Shown: one piece after another, positions 10,891 through 34,751 of the stretch
Position numbering within the stretch: position 1 is the stretch's first letter
Layout: the number at the start of each line of letters is the position of its first letter
NCBI GenBank assembly: GCA_001004345.1
Contig: LCQW01000005.1
Span: 1-52,693, forward strand
Source of the DNA: Candidatus Kaiserbacteria bacterium GW2011_GWA2_52_12
GTDB taxonomy: Bacteria > Patescibacteriota > Minisyncoccia > Phycocordibacterales > UBA2100
Direction: 5' to 3'
Length of the DNA stretch: 52,693 nucleotides
Translations under genes and position numbers: made by a program
Notes under the pieces: model-generated
The model's database searches: none
Told to the model about the DNA's origin: nothing
The model's input: the letters and a program-made list of their open reading frames with translations, nothing else

Positions 10891-12250
<1,360 letters not shown>

Positions 12251-12996: not shown

Positions 12997-13851
12997 ATGA
13001 AACCGGCATTCGTCGTTGAAATAGTCACACCGAAGAAATACCTTCTGAACGGTCTGTGGTTCGGGCCTAAAAAACCGAAACGGGCGATCGTGTGGGTGCA
13101 CGGGCTTGGAAGTTCAATGTTTAGCAAGCTAACGATCGCTGACCATTTGGTAGAGAAGGACACGGCAATCTTGGCGTTCAACAACCGCGGACACGACAAA
13201 GTTGCGAGCGTATCTTCAGGAAGAAATAAACGCGTTCGCGGTGGTGCGGCACATGAGAAGTTCACCGAGTGTGTCGATGATATTCAAGGTGCTATCAATT
13301 TTGCGAAAAGATCCAGTTCTCGCAAGGTGTACCTCGCGGGACATTCAACGGGATGCCAAAAGTCTATCTATTGGGCGTCGAAAAAACAAAATGAAGTGAA
13401 AGGAATTATCCTTCTTGCGCCGATGAGCGATTATGCAGCTGCAATGAAGATCGATGGAGCAAAAAAGATTTCGACAGCGGACAAGGTTGCTCAAAAGATG
13501 ATGCGTTCTAATCGTCGCCACATGCTTCTACCGGAACATACATGGCAATGGTCGCAACTTGCTGATGCCCAACGTTTCATCAGTTTGTATTCTGGTAAGG
13601 GCCCGGAAGAGATATTTACCTATTGGGATTCGAAACGGAAGCCGAGAACACTGCAATCGGTACGGATACCGACCCTTGTTCTTTTGGCGGAAAAAGACGA
13701 ATACGGCGATCGGCCTGCAAAAAAGATTGTCGAATGGTTTGATAAGAATATCCAAACGTCGCACCGTGTGCACGTCATTCCCGGTGCGTCACATAGTTTC
13801 AAAGGAAAAGAGAAAACGGTCGCACGAAAAATCAAGGATTTTATATCATAA
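12997..13851 (+). CDS. Alpha/beta hydrolase (DUF1749-like)
   Basis: WVHGLG, NNRGHD, nucleophile elbow GHSTGCQ, LLAPMSD, GASHSF. Confidence 0.85.
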   Translation: MKPAFVVEIVTPKKYLLNGLWFGPKKPKRAIVWVHGLGSSMFSKLTIADHLVEKDTAILAFNNRGHDKVASVSSGRNKRVRGGAAHEKFTECVDDIQGAINFAKRSSSRKVYLAGHSTGCQKSIYWASKKQNEVKGIILLAPMSDYAAAMKIDGAKKISTADKVAQKMMRSNRRHMLLPEHTWQWSQLADAQRFISLYSGKGPEEIFTYWDSKRKPRTLQSVRIPTLVLLAEKDEYGDRPAKKIVEWFDKNIQTSHRVHVIPGASHSFKGKEKTVARKIKDFIS

Positions 13852-27589: not shown

Positions 27590-29014
27590 TCAACTCGCAG
27601 AGAAGTTCCTGCACACCTTCCACTTCAGAGCGACCGCATAGAAATAGATCGTGCTGGGCCGGAATTTGAGTCGTCTGATATCGGGAGTTCGAGGGCCCGT
27701 CGTCTCACAGATGAGCTCTTGAACTTCGCGTTCGAGGTCGAGCTTTTTGCGGCGCGCATTCTCCTCGTTCGCAAAACACTTACGTTTTGCGGCCGCTCGC
27801 GTGGATTCGTTCAGCTTCCTGTTCAACCTCTCGAATTTCGCATTCCAGTCCACGCCTTCGGCCCAGAATAGAACGAGTGAGACGAACCCGAAGAATACGC
27901 CGGTGACGAGCATGCCGATGGCGAAAGCTGTCAGCAGCTGCAGGAGTGCCCCCAGACCGACCGTGAGAACTGCCACGATGAGAACTTGCAGAATTGTCAA
28001 TGGACTGAAGATGAAGGGGAAGATGAGATGTCGATTCCCCATTTTCCAGATAAATCGAGATCCAGTCACATCGGCACCGACGTTTCCCGGGCTCATCTTG
28101 AGCGGATGTCGCAGGGGAGCATAGTTGATTCCGCGCATTCCCACCAAGTTCAGTACAATCACTCCGAGAAGCGCGACAGCGAATTTTACAATCGCTTTGA
28201 CCCCGAGATACGGGAATCGCACGAGCTGGAACGGATACACGAGTAGCCGACGGTCGCGGAAGGCACATTCGTCCCTCGGTTTATTTTTGAAGAAGGAATT
28301 GACCCACTCATAGTCTCGCGGTTTCTCGGCAAAGAGCGCCTCCGGCATATCGATGTCGAAACAGCTGGAGCCGAGCATTTTGATGGACGTAAGGCAATCA
28401 CCGTGACTTGAGATGACGTTACTCGTATACTCACCGTCCCTCATATTGAGGTACCTGTCGATGAGGTCTCTTTGGCTGCCCCATTGATTGACGATCACAC
28501 CGACAACGCGATGTCTTCCTGACGTGTTGAACGACAGCACCGCCATCGGCTTGTTGAGGGCGATTATCTGCCGCCTCTCCTTCAGCGACTGATGCCTGTC
28601 GTCAGAATTAGAAAGTGGGTACTGGATTATCAGAAGACCCAAGGCATCCCCTTCCAATGACTGTTTTTTAATCTTTGCAGCTGTCTTTGCATCGACGCAC
28701 CATGAAACAAAGAAGCTCGGCTGTAGGAGGGCGTGTTCGGGCACTCCCAATGTGACACCGTCGTTTGCGAGACCCGCAAAACGGCTTTCGGGTGTCTCGT
28801 GGGCATACGGAGTGCGGAAGAATCCCTTGCCGCGTTTCTCGTCCGGCTGCACACCGAACTCAAGTTCCATCCCGACGCGGAGTGGCCGATTGCAATCATT
28901 TCCATGGACGAAGATGCCGTCCGTCGTCTCGATGGGCGGTTCGACCGTTGTTTGGTCGATGTAACCGTATCTGTCTTCTTTCGTCCATTTTAAGGTGCCT
29001 CTATAAAGTGCCAT
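27590..29014 (-). CDS. Cold-shock-domain-containing membrane protein
   Basis: N-terminal GTLKW..YGYI..IFVH..LRVGMELEF (CSD RNP1/RNP2), unknown middle region, C-terminal TM helices and coiled coil. Confidence 0.75.
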   Translation of the reverse strand: MALYRGTLKWTKEDRYGYIDQTTVEPPIETTDGIFVHGNDCNRPLRVGMELEFGVQPDEKRGKGFFRTPYAHETPESRFAGLANDGVTLGVPEHALLQPSFFVSWCVDAKTAAKIKKQSLEGDALGLLIIQYPLSNSDDRHQSLKERRQIIALNKPMAVLSFNTSGRHRVVGVIVNQWGSQRDLIDRYLNMRDGEYTSNVISSHGDCLTSIKMLGSSCFDIDMPEALFAEKPRDYEWVNSFFKNKPRDECAFRDRRLLVYPFQLVRFPYLGVKAIVKFAVALLGVIVLNLVGMRGINYAPLRHPLKMSPGNVGADVTGSRFIWKMGNRHLIFPFIFSPLTILQVLIVAVLTVGLGALLQLLTAFAIGMLVTGVFFGFVSLVLFWAEGVDWNAKFERLNRKLNESTRAAAKRKCFANEENARRKKLDLEREVQELICETTGPRTPDIRRLKFRPSTIYFYAVALKWKVCRNFSAS

Positions 29015-29124: not shown

Positions 29125-29195
29125 TGTATTTTTACCACGGTTATTAGATCATGTCTAGTGGTCGGCAAAAAAGACGATTATGCTATGCTATAGCA

Positions 29196-30164
29196 ATGGA
29201 CAAACCAAAAGTAACCCCAAAGGACTTTTTCCTCTGGGCGGGGGCGATGGTTTCTTTATACGTAAGCGTTTTTTCGTTCATTTCGTTGATATTCGATTAC
29301 ATCAATTACACATTTCCCGATCCGCTCCAATACTTTCCCACCAATCCGTATTCCGGCTCCATCAGCTACGAAATGGCGTCGCTCATCGTTATGTTCCCGA
29401 TATTTCTCATCCTTATGCGCGTCATCAACAATGACATCGCGCGCGACCCAACAAGGCGCGATATCTGGATACGGCGCTGGGCTCTCTATTTGACCCTTTT
29501 TATCGCAGCGCTCGCGCTCGCGGGAGACCTCATCACGCTCATCATGTATTTCCTCAACGGTGAAATAACCATCCGTTTCATCGCGAAAGTATTCGTCGTG
29601 TTCGCGGTCGCGGCTGCGGGCTTTCTGCATTTTGTCGCCGACCTGCGCGGATTTTGGGAGCAAAATCGCAATCAGGCGCGTTCCGTGGGCTTGGCGACAG
29701 GCGGTCTCATCCTTATCACGGTCATCTCTGGATTCTTCATCATCGGAACGCCGTGGGAGGCCCGCTTGTATCGGTTTGATGAGCAGAAAGTGGGCGACCT
29801 GCAGAATATCCAGTATCAGATAGTCAATTATTGGCAGCAAAAGCAAACGATTCCGCCTGCATTGGCCGATCTCTATGACCCGATACAGGGCAATATTCTT
29901 CCACGCGACCCGCAAACGGGAGAGCAGTATGCCTACGCCATCCTCGGGACGTATTCTTTCAAACTCTGTGCCACGTTCAATGCCGAGACCCCGGCTCGTT
30001 CGGCCGATGCGGCGAATAGCCCAGCAGTACCGGTGAGTCCCGTGGGCTCAAAGCTTGTACAAAATGAAACGTGGTATCACCCGGCAGGAGAGTTCTGTTT
30101 CAATCGCGGCATCGATCCCCAGCGCTATCCGCCGTACTCAAAGACGATACAAAAAACACAATGA
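29196..30164 (+). CDS. DUF5671-like membrane protein
   Basis: PKDFFLW, RRWALYLTLFIA, GDLITL, IIGTP..ARL.RFDE..V.DLQ, DPQTGEQY, FKLCATF. Confidence 0.78.
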   Translation: MDKPKVTPKDFFLWAGAMVSLYVSVFSFISLIFDYINYTFPDPLQYFPTNPYSGSISYEMASLIVMFPIFLILMRVINNDIARDPTRRDIWIRRWALYLTLFIAALALAGDLITLIMYFLNGEITIRFIAKVFVVFAVAAAGFLHFVADLRGFWEQNRNQARSVGLATGGLILITVISGFFIIGTPWEARLYRFDEQKVGDLQNIQYQIVNYWQQKQTIPPALADLYDPIQGNILPRDPQTGEQYAYAILGTYSFKLCATFNAETPARSADAANSPAVPVSPVGSKLVQNETWYHPAGEFCFNRGIDPQRYPPYSKTIQKTQ

Positions 30165-30216: not shown

Positions 30217-30300
30217 ATGCACGGATATGACCATAAAAAAATAGAAAAAAAATGGCCCTCCTTCGCTAAAGCTACGGACGGGCAAGCAAAAATCGTATGA
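30217..30300 (+). pseudogene. 27-aa uORF resembling a LeuRS N-terminal fragment with a family A repeat
   Basis: MHGYDHKKIEKKW vs leuS MKRYDHKGIERKW; stop overlaps the leuS start (ATGA). Confidence 0.6.
30255..30287 (+). repeat. Short palindromic repeat, family A
   Basis: gccctccttcgctaaagctacggacgggcaagc. Confidence 0.85.
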
Positions 30301-33284
30301 AACGGTACGATCATAAAGGAATTGAACGTAAATGGCAGAAAATATGGGCTTCGAAGGGCATTTTCAAGACCGCCGACGCTAAAAAAAATAGCGATAATTT
30401 TTACCTCCTTACCGAATTTCCGTACCCGTCGGGCAATCTCCACGTCGGACACTGGTATGCATTTGCGGTGCCCGATATTCTCGCGCGTGCGCTGCGCATG
30501 CAGGGGAAAAATGTGCTGTACCCGATCGGTTTCGATGCATTCGGACTTCCAGCGGAAAATGCCGCGATAAAAAATAAACTCAACCCCAAGAAATGGACGT
30601 ACGCCAACATCGCGTACATGAAAAAGCAGATCGTCTCAATGGGGGCTTCATTCGACTGGTCGCGCGAAGTCATTACCGCCGATCCCACATATTACAAATG
30701 GACGCAGTGGCAATTCTTGCAGCTCTTCAAAAAAGGTCTCGCATATCAGAAAGAGACGGCCGTCAACTGGTGCCCAAAAGACAAAACGGTTCTGGCCAAC
30801 GAACAAGTAGTGGGTGGCAAATGTGAGCGATGCGATTCGATCGTCGAGCAGAAGATGATGCTGCAGTGGAATATCAAGATCACCGATTACGCCGACAGGC
30901 TCATCGACGACCTTGAGCCTCTTGATTGGCCGAAGGAAATAAAAGAGTCGCAGCGCAATTGGATCGGCCGCTCGGAGGGTGCGGAGATCGATTTTCGTCT
31001 ACCGATCGATACGATGAAACATGTCGTTATTTTGCACAGTCGAGGCGGGACGCCGGATTCCGATTTCATCCCGTGGGTAAAAGATGAACTTGAAAAGCTG
31101 GGATACACAGTTGAAGTGCCCATGCTCCCGAATAATACTGAACCGGACGATATTGAGCAGTCAAAATATATTGCGAAGAATTGCACGATTGATGAGAATA
31201 CAATCATTGTCGGACACTCTTCAGGTGGCCTTGCGGCCATGCGACTTCTTGAAAAAACAAAAGGGGGTCGCCTTGTGCTCGTTGGTACTCCTCATAACTC
31301 TGTGTTTGCAGACGGCAAGGAACGCGCATCCGTTTCGCGCTCGATCAATCGCGGATACGACTACAGGAAGATTTGCTCGAATGTGCGGGACGTTATCGCA
31401 CTCTACGATAGTGGCGATCCGATCATTCCGCTTTCGGACGGAAAAGCGTATGCTGAAAAACTCGGAGGAATATATATCGAGGGTAAGGGAACGATAGGCC
31501 ATTTCAACGGTGATAAGGAGCCGGATGTTTTGATGGCCATAACGCCGACGCTCCGCGTGTTCACAACTCGCCCAGACACCTTATTTGGTGCCACGTATCT
31601 CGTGCTCGCGCCGGAACATCCGTGGATCGCGCTCGTACTCACACATTGTGGATTGTTAACAAATGAGGATGAAATAGGGCGATATATCGCCCTATCGAAG
31701 AGAAAAACGGAACTTGAACGTTTAGTCGATCAAAAAGAAAAGACGGGCGTGAAGCTTGATGGTGTCGAGGCGATCAATCCCGCGACGGGGGAGAAGATAC
31801 CGGTATTTGTGGCGGATTACGTGCTTGCCACCTACGGCACTGGCGCCATCATGGCAGTGCCCGCGCACGACGAGCGTGATTTTGCATTTGCGAAAAAGTT
31901 CGACCTGTCTATAAAGAATGTGATACGACCGGCAACTTTAGGGTTTGGACCGGGGGGAAATTATCGGTCGCCAACAATCAACGAATCGCACGAAAATGTA
32001 CATGTTTACAGCGGCATCGGTGAATTGATGGATTCGGGAGAGTTCAACGGTCTGTCAGGACAGGCTGCAAAGATAGCTATAACTGAACGTTTCGGACGCA
32101 AAAAGACAACCTATAAACTGCGCGATTGGATCGTATCGCGCCAACGTTATTGGGGTGTGCCGATACCGATCATTCATTGCAAAAAGTGTGGAGCAGTCGC
32201 GGTGCTCGACAAAGACCTGCCGGTGAAGCTTCCGGAAGTCAAAGATTATTTGCCGGAAGGGAGCGGAAAATCTCCACTTGCCAAAGTAAAGACATTTGTG
32301 GACACGGTGTGTCCTAAATGTTGCTCAAAAGCTATGCGAGAGACCGACACACTCGATACGTTCATTGATTCATCATGGCACTTCCTGCGTTATACGGATC
32401 CGAAAAATACAAAAGAATTCGCGTCGAAAAAGAAAATGATGAATTGGATGCCTGTCGATCTCTATTCGGGAGGGGCCGAACATACAACGATGCACTTACT
32501 CTATTCACGATTTTGGCACAAGGCACTTTTCGACCTCGGATTGGTCGACGACCATGAACCGTACAGGCGGCGTATGAATCGGTCGCTCATCCTCGGGCCT
32601 GACGGTCAAAAAATGAGCAAATCACGCGGCAATGTCATTGATCCGGATGCTATCGTGGCGCAGCTCGGTGCCGACACGGTACGCATGTATTTGGCGTTTA
32701 TCGGCCCATACAACGAAGCGTCGAGTTATCCGTGGAATCCCGATGGGGTGGTGGGCGCGAGGCGGTTTTTGGAACGTGTATGGAGGGTAGGGGAGTTGGT
32801 ACAAAAAACAGATGTATCGGAGTTGACCACATTGCTGCATAAAACCATCAAAAAAGTCGGCGACGATATCGCAGCCATGAAATTCAACACGGCCATCAGC
32901 CAGCTCATGATATTGCTTAATGAAATTGAAAAGCAGAAAAAAATAAGCACAGATCAGTGGGCTACTCTTTTGAAGCTACTTGCGCCGTTTGCGCCACACA
33001 TGACGGAGGAATTGTGGGCTCTTGCGAAACACAAATCCTCTATTCATACACAAGAATGGCCGGTATACGATCCTCAATTACTGCAGGATGCGACGGTGAC
33101 GATAATGATCCAGATCAATGGTAAAACTCGCGGTGAGATTATTGTTTCTTCGGATGCAGATAAAGCAACTGTTGAGGCAAAGGCGCGCGAGGCGATGACG
33201 AGTCGCATGGGAGGGAAGTCTGTCACCCGTACCATTGTCGTCCCGGGCAGGCTGATCAACTTTGTACTAGAGGAGAAGTTATAG
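30297..33284 (+). CDS. leuS: Leucine--tRNA ligase with inserted alpha/beta hydrolase domain
   Basis: FPYPSGNLHVGH, VFTTRPDTLFG, GTGAIMAVPAHDERD, SRQRYWG, KMSKS; extra domain with GHSSGG. Confidence 0.97.
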   Translation: MKRYDHKGIERKWQKIWASKGIFKTADAKKNSDNFYLLTEFPYPSGNLHVGHWYAFAVPDILARALRMQGKNVLYPIGFDAFGLPAENAAIKNKLNPKKWTYANIAYMKKQIVSMGASFDWSREVITADPTYYKWTQWQFLQLFKKGLAYQKETAVNWCPKDKTVLANEQVVGGKCERCDSIVEQKMMLQWNIKITDYADRLIDDLEPLDWPKEIKESQRNWIGRSEGAEIDFRLPIDTMKHVVILHSRGGTPDSDFIPWVKDELEKLGYTVEVPMLPNNTEPDDIEQSKYIAKNCTIDENTIIVGHSSGGLAAMRLLEKTKGGRLVLVGTPHNSVFADGKERASVSRSINRGYDYRKICSNVRDVIALYDSGDPIIPLSDGKAYAEKLGGIYIEGKGTIGHFNGDKEPDVLMAITPTLRVFTTRPDTLFGATYLVLAPEHPWIALVLTHCGLLTNEDEIGRYIALSKRKTELERLVDQKEKTGVKLDGVEAINPATGEKIPVFVADYVLATYGTGAIMAVPAHDERDFAFAKKFDLSIKNVIRPATLGFGPGGNYRSPTINESHENVHVYSGIGELMDSGEFNGLSGQAAKIAITERFGRKKTTYKLRDWIVSRQRYWGVPIPIIHCKKCGAVAVLDKDLPVKLPEVKDYLPEGSGKSPLAKVKTFVDTVCPKCCSKAMRETDTLDTFIDSSWHFLRYTDPKNTKEFASKKKMMNWMPVDLYSGGAEHTTMHLLYSRFWHKALFDLGLVDDHEPYRRRMNRSLILGPDGQKMSKSRGNVIDPDAIVAQLGADTVRMYLAFIGPYNEASSYPWNPDGVVGARRFLERVWRVGELVQKTDVSELTTLLHKTIKKVGDDIAAMKFNTAISQLMILLNEIEKQKKISTDQWATLLKLLAPFAPHMTEELWALAKHKSSIHTQEWPVYDPQLLQDATVTIMIQINGKTRGEIIVSSDADKATVEAKAREAMTSRMGGKSVTRTIVVPGRLINFVLEEKL

Positions 33285-34751
33285 TTTGAAAACGCGGGAA
33301 CTGCCGTGCGCGTCGTCGATCTCGTAGCCACAATCGAGAATTTTTGTTCGTAATTGGTCGGCACGCGCCCAATCTTTATCTTTGCGCGCTGTCTCGCGCT
33401 CGGCAATGAACGTGCGTATCGCTTCTGGCAGGTCAAAGAGCGTCAACTCGGCGCGCAATTCTTTGCTCGCAAGCTCTTGTGCGCGCTCGTCTGGATCGGA
33501 AAGTTTCAAACCAAGGACGCAATCGGCATCGAGAAGTGTAGCGATCTTTTCTTCTTTGCTGAGTGAATTATCCTTAATCATCTGCCACGCGGTAGCGAGG
33601 GCGCCCGGCGTGTCGATGTCGTCGTTGAAGCGTTGGTGGAATATCGTATGCCATTTGTTGTTTGGTGCCGTTGCTCGCTCTTTGTCTTTACAGTAAGCCA
33701 GCAATTTGCCGTATGCCGTCTGTGCTGCGGCGAGTGATTCCCATGTAAAATTCATCGGCGTCCGGTAGTGCGCCCCGAGGAAGAGGTAGCGAAGCGAGAG
33801 GGGATGAAAGCCGCGCTCTATCACATCGGAGAGATAGACGACGTTGCCTTTCGATTTTGCGATCTTACCGCCTGCAAGTTGTATGTGAGCACGATGAAGC
33901 CAAAAACGCGAAAATGGTTTTTTGCCGGTAGCGGCTTCCGACTGGGCTATCTCGTTATTGTGGTGAATGGCAACATGCTCGATACCGCCGGTATGGATAT
34001 CGATCTGCTCGCCGAGCGTGGAGCGTATCATGGCGGAGCATTCTATGTGCCAGCCGGGGAATCCCTTGCCCCATGGCGAATCCCATCCGAGCTTTTTATC
34101 ACTTTTCCAAAGAATAAAATCGGTCGGGCTGCGCTTTTCGGGGTCCGCTTTCACCCGTGCCCCTTCTTTGAGGGACGAGAGATCGATATTTCCCAATTGC
34201 CCGTACGATGGGAAGCGCGACGTGTCATACATCACGCCGCTTTTTGTGCGGTATGCGTATCCTTTTTCCTCGAGTGTCCGTATCATCGCTATTTGCGCGG
34301 GGATATAATCGCTCGCGCGGGGGAATGTTACCGTGTCCACCTCCACGTTGAGCGCACGCATATCTTCCAGAAAAAGCTGCGAGTATTTCTCTCCGAGCGA
34401 ACGCATGTTGGCCATCGTCAAGGCGAGTCCTTCACGTTTGAGGCCTTTCGTCATTTTGTCCTCGCCCTCATCGGCATCTGAAGTGAGATGTCCGAAATCC
34501 GTAAAATTAATGACTTGTTTAACATTGAAGCCATTGTATTGCAGCGTGCGGCGCAGGATGTCGGTGAAAACGAACATCGAAAGGTTGCCGATATGTTGGC
34601 GGCCGTAGACCGTCGGTCCACAATTGTACATGCGCACCAAGTTGTCCTTTTTTACCGCGTTGAATTCCTGCTTTACCGCACCGAGCGTGTTGTATAAATA
34701 AAGCGGCACCCGCCCCAGCCCTTCAGATCTGAAGAGGTCGAATAATCCCAT
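33279..34751 (-). CDS. cysS: Cysteine--tRNA ligase
   Basis: CGPTVY..HIGN, DFILWK, PGWHIECSAM, HHNNEIAQSE, KIAKSKGN. Confidence 0.96.
   Translation of the reverse strand: MGLFDLFRSEGLGRVPLYLYNTLGAVKQEFNAVKKDNLVRMYNCGPTVYGRQHIGNLSMFVFTDILRRTLQYNGFNVKQVINFTDFGHLTSDADEGEDKMTKGLKREGLALTMANMRSLGEKYSQLFLEDMRALNVEVDTVTFPRASDYIPAQIAMIRTLEEKGYAYRTKSGVMYDTSRFPSYGQLGNIDLSSLKEGARVKADPEKRSPTDFILWKSDKKLGWDSPWGKGFPGWHIECSAMIRSTLGEQIDIHTGGIEHVAIHHNNEIAQSEAATGKKPFSRFWLHRAHIQLAGGKIAKSKGNVVYLSDVIERGFHPLSLRYLFLGAHYRTPMNFTWESLAAAQTAYGKLLAYCKDKERATAPNNKWHTIFHQRFNDDIDTPGALATAWQMIKDNSLSKEEKIATLLDADCVLGLKLSDPDERAQELASKELRAELTLFDLPEAIRTFIAERETARKDKDWARADQLRTKILDCGYEIDDAHGSSRVFKL

Follow-up and report, generated by a model that had tools for sequence, protein, structure and literature searches.

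In the 52,693-nucleotide contig LCQW01000005.1 of Candidatus Kaiserbacteria bacterium GW2011_GWA2_52_12 (the window, i.e., the whole stretch of DNA analysed here), the leuS gene encodes a leucyl-tRNA synthetase (LeuRS) of 995 amino acids (aa) in which a second enzyme is nested. Sequence comparison and structure prediction confirm that the inserted domain is a complete and intact serine hydrolase of the YdeN/RBBP9 type, placed in the editing domain CP1 at its first hairpin. Among such hydrolases it falls into a clade tied to editing synthetases, here called clade L. Our tentative reading, to which we give a probability of about 0.45, is that the insert would assist the synthetase as an accessory hydrolase of alpha-aminoacyl (thio)esters or amides. 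The source genome (G000) is Kaiserbacteria-like, with an assembly of 38 contigs that total 924,614 bases and a completeness of 91%. The features of the gene are listed below with their window coordinates and strand.

30297..33284, plus strand: leuS, 995-aa bacterial-type LeuRS with the nested hydrolase (NCBIfam TIGR00396, 971 bits)
30297..31001, plus strand: LeuRS residues 1-235, i.e., N-terminal Rossmann half, Zn module and first CP1 hairpin strand (GAEIDF, aa 228-233; strand 225-234 in the model)
30441..30452, plus strand: HIGH signature HVGH, aa 49-52 (H49 and G51 invariant, H52 nearly so)
31002..31547, plus strand: RBBP9/YdeN-type alpha/beta serine hydrolase domain, aa 236-417, assigned to clade L from sequence, fold and tree
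31212..31229, plus strand: putative nucleophile elbow GHSSGG, aa 306-311, with Ser308 (codon 31218-31220) aligned to RBBP9 Ser75
31416..31418, plus strand: predicted catalytic acid Asp374 of GDPIIP, from the alignment (Asp 74% and Glu 22% in clade L)
31500..31502, plus strand: predicted catalytic His402 of GHF, invariant in an alignment of 46 sequences and 98% conserved in clade L
31548..33284, plus strand: LeuRS residues 418-995, i.e., second hairpin strand, CP1 editing domain, second core half, anticodon-binding and C-terminal domains (from Pfam, TIGR00396 and the model)
31563..31580, plus strand: T-rich editing motif TTRPDT, aa 423-428 (T423, T424, R425, D427 and T428 invariant; role from PMC3747510)
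31836..31880, plus strand: editing-site GTG loop and conserved Asp residues (GTGAIMAVPAHDERD, aa 514-528), from the alignment, with motif definitions from PMC3747510
31938..31997, plus strand: site-B loop, aa 548-567, of low confidence in the model and without a cassette here, corresponding to the I4b loop of Streptococcus pneumoniae LeuRS
32610..32624, plus strand: KMSKS signature, aa 772-776, from an alignment of 41 LeuRS

The open reading frame (ORF) of leuS is single and unbroken. It matches the bacterial LeuRS model leuS_bact (TIGR00396) well above the cut-off of 548.4 bits, and other class I synthetase matches across the genome score far under that value. The match falls into two stretches, profile positions 1-234 and 239-842, on either side of the insert, which shows that about 180 aa are interposed in a LeuRS. 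Pfam recognised in the whole protein the class I core, the LeuRS editing domain PF13603 (E 9e-53, from residue 418) and the anticodon-binding domain. An earlier reading of the letters alone (the sequence-only reading) had stated that all synthetic and editing motifs of LeuRS remain, and they do: HVGH and KMSKS occupy columns that are invariant or nearly so among the 41 aligned LeuRS, and the CP1 editing site is complete, with TTRPDT followed by GTG...D..D. Profile searches of the 91%-complete genome found neither a second LeuRS nor a second copy of the insert. Since this is the only LeuRS found, it is presumably functional in leucylation and editing.

The sequence-only reading had further proposed an intact hydrolase of the YdeN/RBBP9 type at the start of CP1, and this was borne out. 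The coordinates it gave, 31002-31547, correspond exactly to residues 236-417, and every motif it quoted is present; along the protein these read GAEIDF (228-233), VVILHS (243-248), GHSSGG (306-311), GDPIIP (373-378), GHFNG (401-405) and VFTTR (421-425). In isolation, the insert matched human RBBP9 (E 4.7e-13, insert residues 8-170 of 182) and Bacillus subtilis YdeN (E 6.9e-9, whole length). A model of the isolated insert, built on the alignment of 46 sequences, reached a predicted local distance difference test score (pLDDT) of 97.2 and a predicted template modelling score (pTM) of 0.93. Its top Foldseek matches were RBBP9 (2qs9, 7oex, 9fcr) and YdeN (1uxo), with template modelling (TM) scores of 0.82-0.86, a root-mean-square deviation of 2.2-2.7 A and E-values of about 1e-13, and all remaining hydrolases scored 5e-6 or worse. 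Ser308, Asp374 and His402 of the insert align with Ser75, Asp138 and His165 of RBBP9; we presume the numbers of the latter two, which fit the positions of Phe140 and Leu141 as given in the RBBP9 paper. The triad is strongly conserved, with Ser in 98%, an acid in 96% (Asp 74% plus Glu 22%) and His in 98% of clade L, and Ser in 100% of a second clade, S, described below. Judged from these residues, the insert is probably catalytically competent.

The domain scan proposed by the sequence-only reading came out in part: the insert has the RBBP9/YdeN matches in sequence and fold described above, and its score for the Pfam family PF06821 (Ser_hydrolase), 16.4 bits, stays below the gathering threshold of 22. 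A PF06821 search of the G000 genome likewise missed the insert. The inserts of 16 relatives and most scanned representatives do pass this cut-off, and the G000 insert is probably a diverged member of the family rather than a member of a different one. An intein or other self-splicing element was rejected as an explanation; Pfam found no Hint family at E ≤ 0.1 in either the protein or the insert, and the insert is a whole hydrolase. The AlaX, YbaK and Dtd families were not among the Pfam and NCBIfam matches of the protein either, and the fold of the insert is that of an alpha/beta hydrolase. Elsewhere in the window, a 308-aa frame encoding another alpha/beta hydrolase matches PF06821 only at the nucleophile elbow (13294-13434, plus strand, 27 bits). 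Similar frames of about 300 aa are common among relatives and are not copies of the LeuRS insert.

In the model of full-length LeuRS (pLDDT 87.6, pTM 0.78), the insert and both linkers are predicted with confidence (blocks of 82-96). The strands on either side of it, 225-234 and 418-423, persist, which indicates that the insert replaces the tip of the first CP1 beta-hairpin, and only five residues separate its end from the TTRPDT editing motif. A complex prediction pairing LeuRS residues 1-235 plus 418-995 with the insert returned an ipSAE of 0.00, which is no answer and carries no weight either way.

There is next to no chance that a chimeric or mis-joined contig put a hydrolase gene into leuS, and we regard such an artefact as refuted by relatives that share the design and by contigs that bridge the junctions. 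The sequence-only reading had made its case depend on support for the junctions, and contigs of four sequencing runs from four other studies (X5, X6, X8 and X11) supply it. The left junction, 31001/31002, is bridged in X6 (record 18), X8 (record 26) and X11 (record 4), and the right junction, 31547/31548, in X5 (record 13), X6 (record 20) and X8 (record 28). The frame is continuous, and the architecture recurs in 17 of 21 LeuRS of the genus, in 12 of 12 loci from other metagenome-assembled genomes and in 74 of 80 metagenome loci. One short X6 contig joins 30979 to 31606 and omits 626 nucleotides (nt) including the entire insert. It was given no weight; since its shorter side measures just 22 nt, it may stem from a co-occurring relative without the insert.

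We searched 40 relatives and fetched leuS from 35 of them (loci L039-L073), which together with G000 gave 36 LeuRS; G004, G007, G013, G023 and G030 were left out as fragmentary or split over contigs. The 17 hydrolase-bearing LeuRS of the genus, G000 included, all carry the domain in the first CP1 hairpin, hereafter site A. The other four (G002, G009, G018 and G022) lack it, and so does G007, judged by search coordinates. Outside the genus, one of 14 assessable LeuRS has the hydrolase (G028), and the LeuRS of G040 is truncated at the site. Genus members without the insert have a short loop resembling that of the outgroups, which looks like the ancestral allele rather than the result of a clean deletion.

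As an alternative, the sequence-only reading had suggested a hotspot for passenger domains at this position, and what we found at this and other loops agrees with it. In G033 (L064:1183-1602), an unrelated insert of about 131-140 aa occupies the same hairpin as the hydrolase; it matched no Pfam family and gave no usable match in the protein Atlas. Tandems of NUDIX plus hydrolase and of hydrolase plus Ham1 also occur, and two further LeuRS loops hold NUDIX, HAD or the same hydrolase. At site B (about aa 545-557 in G000, the I4b position), a NUDIX cassette (PF00293) of about 150 aa is present in 19 of the 36 LeuRS, as confirmed by Pfam in the three LeuRS scanned; G000 itself has only a disordered loop of 20 residues there. 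A third site, C, carries in G027 (L058:1605-2090) an insert of about 136 aa, for which Pfam returned no family. A HAD phosphatase (about aa 655-840) or a Ham1/ITPase domain, the latter behind the hydrolase and before CP1, is present in addition to the site-A hydrolase in proteins P0033, P0054 and P0093.

The nested design extends well beyond the genus. In a large protein collection, each of the 120 best clusters covers the region with the insert, at identities of 43-99%, and the closest proteins are publicly named Candidatus Kaiserbacteria, Parcubacteria, Paceibacterota and Patescibacteria. The automatic names of such proteins are 'alpha/beta fold hydrolase', 'NUDIX domain-containing protein' or 'class I tRNA ligase family protein'. 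When free-standing homologues were used as seeds for scanning species genomes, 12 loci emerged, each encoding a LeuRS of the bacterial type that bears the hydrolase at site A. The titles of these records name Saccharibacteria (4), Levyibacteriota (2), Pacearchaeota (3), Woesearchaeota (1), 'bacterium' (1) and 'Gammaproteobacteria' (1). The locus titled 'Gammaproteobacteria' (L110) has a gene order common to the Levyibacteriota loci L112 and L114. The loci titled Pacearchaeota or Woesearchaeota (L105, L109, L111 and L116), i.e., DPANN, encode a bacterial-type LeuRS that scores above the cut-off of TIGR00396 and far below that of leuS_arch; they could reflect transfer between bacteria of the candidate phyla radiation (CPR) and DPANN or a binning error. 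A search of metagenome contigs with P0124 alone gave no match.

The insert was then compared with 1.84 billion representative proteins, among which 1426 relatives were found at E ≤ 1e-3 and 294 at E ≤ 1e-10. Pfam was run on 59 of the 150 best relatives, and 33 of these 59 contain the LeuRS editing-domain family. Valyl-tRNA synthetase (ValRS), alanyl-tRNA synthetase (AlaRS), UvrB, TsaD, SecA and Der/EngA each occurred once as host, and other fusions involved Adk, HD, NUDIX, Peptidase_S51 (two), glyoxalase, Smr, DUF1653 and nucleotidyltransferase domains. A FastTree phylogeny of 163 domain rows splits with a support of 99 into clade L (74 rows) and clade S (89 rows). Clade L holds all 42 LeuRS site-A inserts, the rows labelled as LeuRS site C and as site B behind NUDIX, as well as the ValRS, AlaRS, TsaD, Der and SecA inserts. 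It also includes 15 rows labelled free-standing, 13 of them complete small ORFs and two fragments. Clade S is mostly free-standing; it also takes in one insert at LeuRS site B and the fusions to UvrB, Adk, HD, S51 and NUDIX. Clade L is marked by residues conserved in it, namely Glu52 (86%), Gln53 (91%, against Trp in 76% of clade S) and Glu173 (94%, at a position that is hydrophobic in clade S), and by an extra loop with Phe102.

Genomic context separates the two clades. Among 80 metagenome loci examined for domain context, the hydrolase lies inside LeuRS in 74, with 68 at site A and six at site C (near body position 435). Four further loci (L185:5245-9498, L186:5218-9075, L189:705-5837 and L190:4348-9606) contain ORFs of the isoleucyl-tRNA synthetase (IleRS) type, 1286-1753 aa long, in which the hydrolase is embedded once or as two copies in tandem. 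NCBIfam identified the three that were scanned, L190 not among them, as IleRS, with the insert just before IleRS profile positions 221-257; we read this insertion point as the start of CP1, equivalent to the LeuRS junction. In L185, L186 and L190, a further hydrolase copy lies a few kb downstream on the opposite strand. Nearly all embedded ORFs (77 of 78) score higher on a clade-L profile than on that of clade S. The two remaining loci, L150 and L196, carry a free-standing gene, which in both belongs to clade L and lies upstream of leuS on the same strand, in one case by 1.27 kb and in the other by 73 nt. Two LeuRS genes are split into two adjacent ORFs, with the break about 20 residues before the hydrolase in L156:2397-3992 and at the NUDIX-site loop in L176:479-3863; these splits could be real or due to a sequencing frameshift.

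The free-standing copies of the phylum tell a different story. A sample of 401 genomes contained a homologue at E ≤ 1e-10 in 185, and of the 150 listed matches, 30 fall in frames of at least 874 aa and 119 in frames of at most 265 aa. For 60 short-frame matches, taken in rank order, we fetched flanks of up to 6 kb on each side. All 65 short free-standing copies in these 60 loci belong to clade S, and 59 of the 60 loci lack leuS in the fetched flanks; in the one that has it, leuS is 4.2 kb away on the opposite strand. The idea that free-standing homologues generally adjoin leuS is thereby rejected for clade S and holds for the two clade-L cases only. Two of the 60 loci lie directly downstream of ileS; here the clade-S gene adjoins the end of ileS, with a gap of 3 nt in L201:2530-6585 (G280) and an overlap of 4 nt in L248:2462-6558 (G323). 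Taken together, the generic hydrolase family is common and unlinked to leuS, and its specialised offshoot, clade L, is tied to editing synthetases.

LeuRS occurs with or without the cassette, whose history does not follow that of the host gene. On a tree of LeuRS bodies (IQ-TREE quick mode, insert columns removed), the presence of the site-A cassette requires at least five changes and that of the site-B NUDIX at least nine. The inserts of the genus fall into two distant subclades of clade L, whose carriers are intermixed on the body tree. A tree constrained to unite the seven bodies that carry subtype-1 inserts was worse by 183 log-likelihood units, with p = 7.5e-5 in the approximately unbiased (AU) test; the group was defined from the insert tree, and the body tree had already been seen at the time of the test. 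The most likely route of exchange is recombination between leuS alleles via the conserved flanks. Judging from its sequences, the cassette is under purifying selection. Nonsynonymous divergence (dN) of the insert was 0.16-0.54 in all ten genus pairs, and synonymous divergence (dS) was saturated in nine of them, so that dN/dS is not computable there, and 2.3 in the remaining one. For the three closest pairs, conservation of the insert matches that of the essential LeuRS body, at 75-78% versus 70-77% aa identity. The G000 insert is the most diverged of its group, with 42-50% identity to its nearest genus relatives at a body identity of 70-71%.

The function we favour would be that of an accessory hydrolase serving the synthetase, and membership in a clade devoted to editing synthetases speaks for such a link. 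Because the insert replaces the tip of the CP1 hairpin, LeuRS keeps its synthetic and its editing site with the hydrolase held next to CP1. From there, the hydrolase would clear or recycle small aminoacyl by-products, and possibly mis-acylated ends, made at the synthetase. The module would be helpful yet dispensable, with lineages gaining, swapping and losing it through recombination of leuS alleles. What is established is the identity and fold of the domain, the conserved triad, the purifying selection, the attachment of clade L to synthetases, the optional presence and the decoupled history; we infer the activity, the substrate class and the cooperation with LeuRS. The sequence-only reading had offered hypothetical roles in deacylating mis-acylated or blocked tRNA ends, in supplying Leu and in destroying inhibitors. 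RBBP9 cleaves hydrophobic or aromatic residues from N-termini and depends on a free alpha-amine; with Dap (2,3-diaminopropionic acid) in place of Ser75, it traps Leu/Ile, Met, Phe, Tyr and Trp acyls from amide (or ester or thioester) substrates (PMC8866121). Glu107 of the G000 insert aligns with the alpha-amine anchor Glu108 of RBBP9, and RBBP9 Ser76, Glu108, Leu103, Phe140 and Leu141 correspond to Ser, Glu, Phe, Ile and Ile in the G000 insert. Pocket and anchor positions vary within clade L, and the specificity of RBBP9 is therefore not transferable with confidence.

Several observations weigh against this function. The anchor column of RBBP9 Glu108 is not conserved in clade L, where it is a gap in 45% and Glu in 17%. 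Clade L also includes the non-synthetase hosts TsaD, Der and SecA, and just two free-standing clade-L genes were seen in genomic context. Four of the 21 genus LeuRS (G002, G009, G018 and G022) lack the hydrolase at site A, and PF06821 has no match anywhere in the insert-less genomes G002 (99% complete), G009 and G022, which makes the cassette dispensable. The same three genomes led us to reject the idea of one copy per genome that moves between hosts. Finally, LeuRS loops that also accept NUDIX, HAD, Ham1 and unidentified domains fit a permissive scaffold.

The last point belongs to the strongest alternative, in which the insert is an autonomous passenger, an independent housekeeping enzyme lodged in a permissive loop of an essential and constitutive gene, with gene economy in a 0.9-Mb genome as the benefit and without cooperation with LeuRS. 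We consider this rather unlikely, if the most plausible of the alternatives. That three LeuRS loops take up unrelated hydrolases and two unidentified domains, that close relatives do without the domain, that presence changes so often on the body tree and that insert type is incongruent with the body all speak for a passenger, as do the non-synthetase hosts in clade L (TsaD, Der, SecA) and in clade S (UvrB, Adk, HD). Against a passenger, a distinct clade with conserved residues of its own occurs almost exclusively in LeuRS, IleRS, ValRS and AlaRS, and tolerance alone hardly accounts for separate insertion events at three LeuRS sites and the homologous CP1 junction of IleRS. The abundant clade S is essentially never inserted, as the near-complete partition of embedded and free-standing copies shows, and both free-standing clade-L genes with visible context adjoin leuS. 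It is improbable, in our view, that the insert instead supplies substrate, as a hydrophobic-residue aminopeptidase or esterase freeing Leu (or Ile/Val) from scavenged peptides for an auxotrophic cell. The aminopeptidase activity of RBBP9 on N-terminal hydrophobic and aromatic residues (PMC8866121) would suit such a role, and so would the hydrophobic residues of G000 at the RBBP9 pocket (Phe102, Ile141 and Ile142 of the insert), the Peptidase_S51 fusions in two representatives and hosts that include the Leu, Ile, Val and Ala synthetases. The S51 fusions, though, belong to clade S rather than clade L, the pocket positions are variable within clade L, and the insertion sites cluster at the editing domain and not at the amino-acid binding site. 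Moreover, free amino acids diffuse, so that tethering brings little obvious gain, and relatives without the domain show no replacement copy. It is very unlikely that the fold is kept merely as a structural or regulatory appendage, such as a docking surface or small-molecule sensor, with the triad a relic. LeuRS-embedded copies are known from sequence alone and the G000 copy has diverged so far from its group, which would allow for a relic; Ser, acid and His are nevertheless each kept in 96-98% of clade L at only about 30-50% sequence identity, together with the G-x-S-x-G elbow and the His-Gly motif of the oxyanion region.

A bolder reading would make clade L a third, undescribed layer of synthetase quality control, a tethered alpha-aminoacyl (thio)ester hydrolase that destroys reactive editing by-products where they arise, most attractively homocysteine thiolactone. 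We give this little credence. LeuRS, IleRS and ValRS are reportedly among five homocysteine-editing synthetases (PMC5370406), and three of the four synthetase hosts found (LeuRS, IleRS and ValRS) belong to that set; AlaRS, TsaD, Der and SecA do not fit. BPHL, which is unrelated, is a hydrolase of esters with a free alpha-amine and an efficient thiolactonase (PMC4198189). G000 has the S-adenosylmethionine synthetase MetK (contig C10) and the S-adenosylhomocysteine hydrolase AhcY (window 10958-12244, plus strand). MetE, a MetH-type methyltransferase and LuxS were not found in the 91%-complete genome, and homocysteine may therefore be a dead-end metabolite in G000. AhcY and the insert occur together in 16 genomes, the insert alone in G003 and G028, and AhcY alone in G002, G018 and G007. 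This co-occurrence is mostly a genus-level signal and not clean, so that it weighs against a thiolactonase and was not counted as support. A compensation for missing D-aminoacyl-tRNA deacylase was rejected: Dtd (PF02580) was found in none of 41 genomes of the order and in 8 of 14 control genomes, and since it is absent with or without the insert, its loss discriminates nothing.

As for the neighbourhood of leuS, cysS, encoding a cysteinyl-tRNA synthetase (TIGR00435, 382 bits), lies at 33279-34751 on the minus strand and converges on leuS, with the 3' ends overlapping by 6 nt (33279-33284). The two ORFs upstream of leuS, 27590-29014 (minus strand) and 29151-30164 (plus strand), matched no NCBIfam family.

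Clade L spans many uncultivated CPR bacteria and DPANN-labelled genomes and seems to exist mainly for life in or beside editing synthetases. If the hydrolase does cooperate with its host, it would represent a new accessory activity in translation quality control and offer a physiological substrate for the orphan YdeN/RBBP9 family. If it is a passenger, nature would here provide a clean example of enzyme cassettes that can be exchanged within permissive loops of an essential protein, of use in engineering domain insertions and in explaining how ultra-small cells economise on their genomes.

Aminoacyl-tRNA synthetases are well studied, and their known extra domains serve editing, tRNA binding and, in eukaryotes, signalling. 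Full-text literature searches found no published description of a hydrolase or NUDIX domain inside LeuRS, and a paper on domain insertions that mentions LeuRS deals with CP1 itself only. The idiosyncratic insertions of LeuRS CP1, the bacterial I2b and I4b and the eukaryal/archaeal I4ae, are the nearest structural parallel (PMC3747510). They are, like the present insert, lineage-specific segments around the conserved CP1 core (beta1-beta2-alpha1-...), some of them near the editing pocket; they are non-catalytic loops or a few helices, whereas the G000 insert is a whole enzyme with a triad. The first-hairpin position before the T-rich region is not listed there among I2b, I4b and I4ae. An IleRS with an N-acetyltransferase domain (NCBIfam NF040702), compared by model name only, likewise joins a class Ia synthetase to an unrelated catalytic domain, with another host and another guest (GNAT instead of an alpha/beta hydrolase).

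On the side of the guest, RBBP9 and YdeN (PF06821) share the alpha/beta hydrolase fold of about 180 aa and the aligned Ser-Asp-His triad. They are free-standing, whereas the G000 domain sits inside a LeuRS loop and comes from a distinct clade marked by Glu52, Gln53 and Glu173, and the alpha-amine anchor Glu108 of RBBP9 is not conserved across that clade. RBBP9 is also reportedly a valacyclovir-activating enzyme, as a reference title lists it. BPHL resembles the insert as an alpha/beta serine hydrolase that prefers a free alpha-amino group beside the scissile carbonyl; it is larger, belongs to a separate alpha/beta hydrolase family and is absent among the 50 Foldseek matches listed, so that any link would be one of chemistry only. 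AlaX, YbaK/ProX and D-Tyr-tRNA deacylase are hydrolytic quality-control modules, fused to synthetases or encoded by separate genes, whose deacylase activity has been demonstrated. Clade L likewise occurs embedded or just upstream of leuS; it differs in its unrelated fold and in that a deacylase role is hypothetical for it. The host is a LeuRS of the ordinary bacterial kind, and the guest belongs to PF06821 or branched off close to it. Their combination is new: the first CP1 hairpin houses a catalytic enzyme, and this enzyme comes from a hydrolase clade specialised for synthetases.

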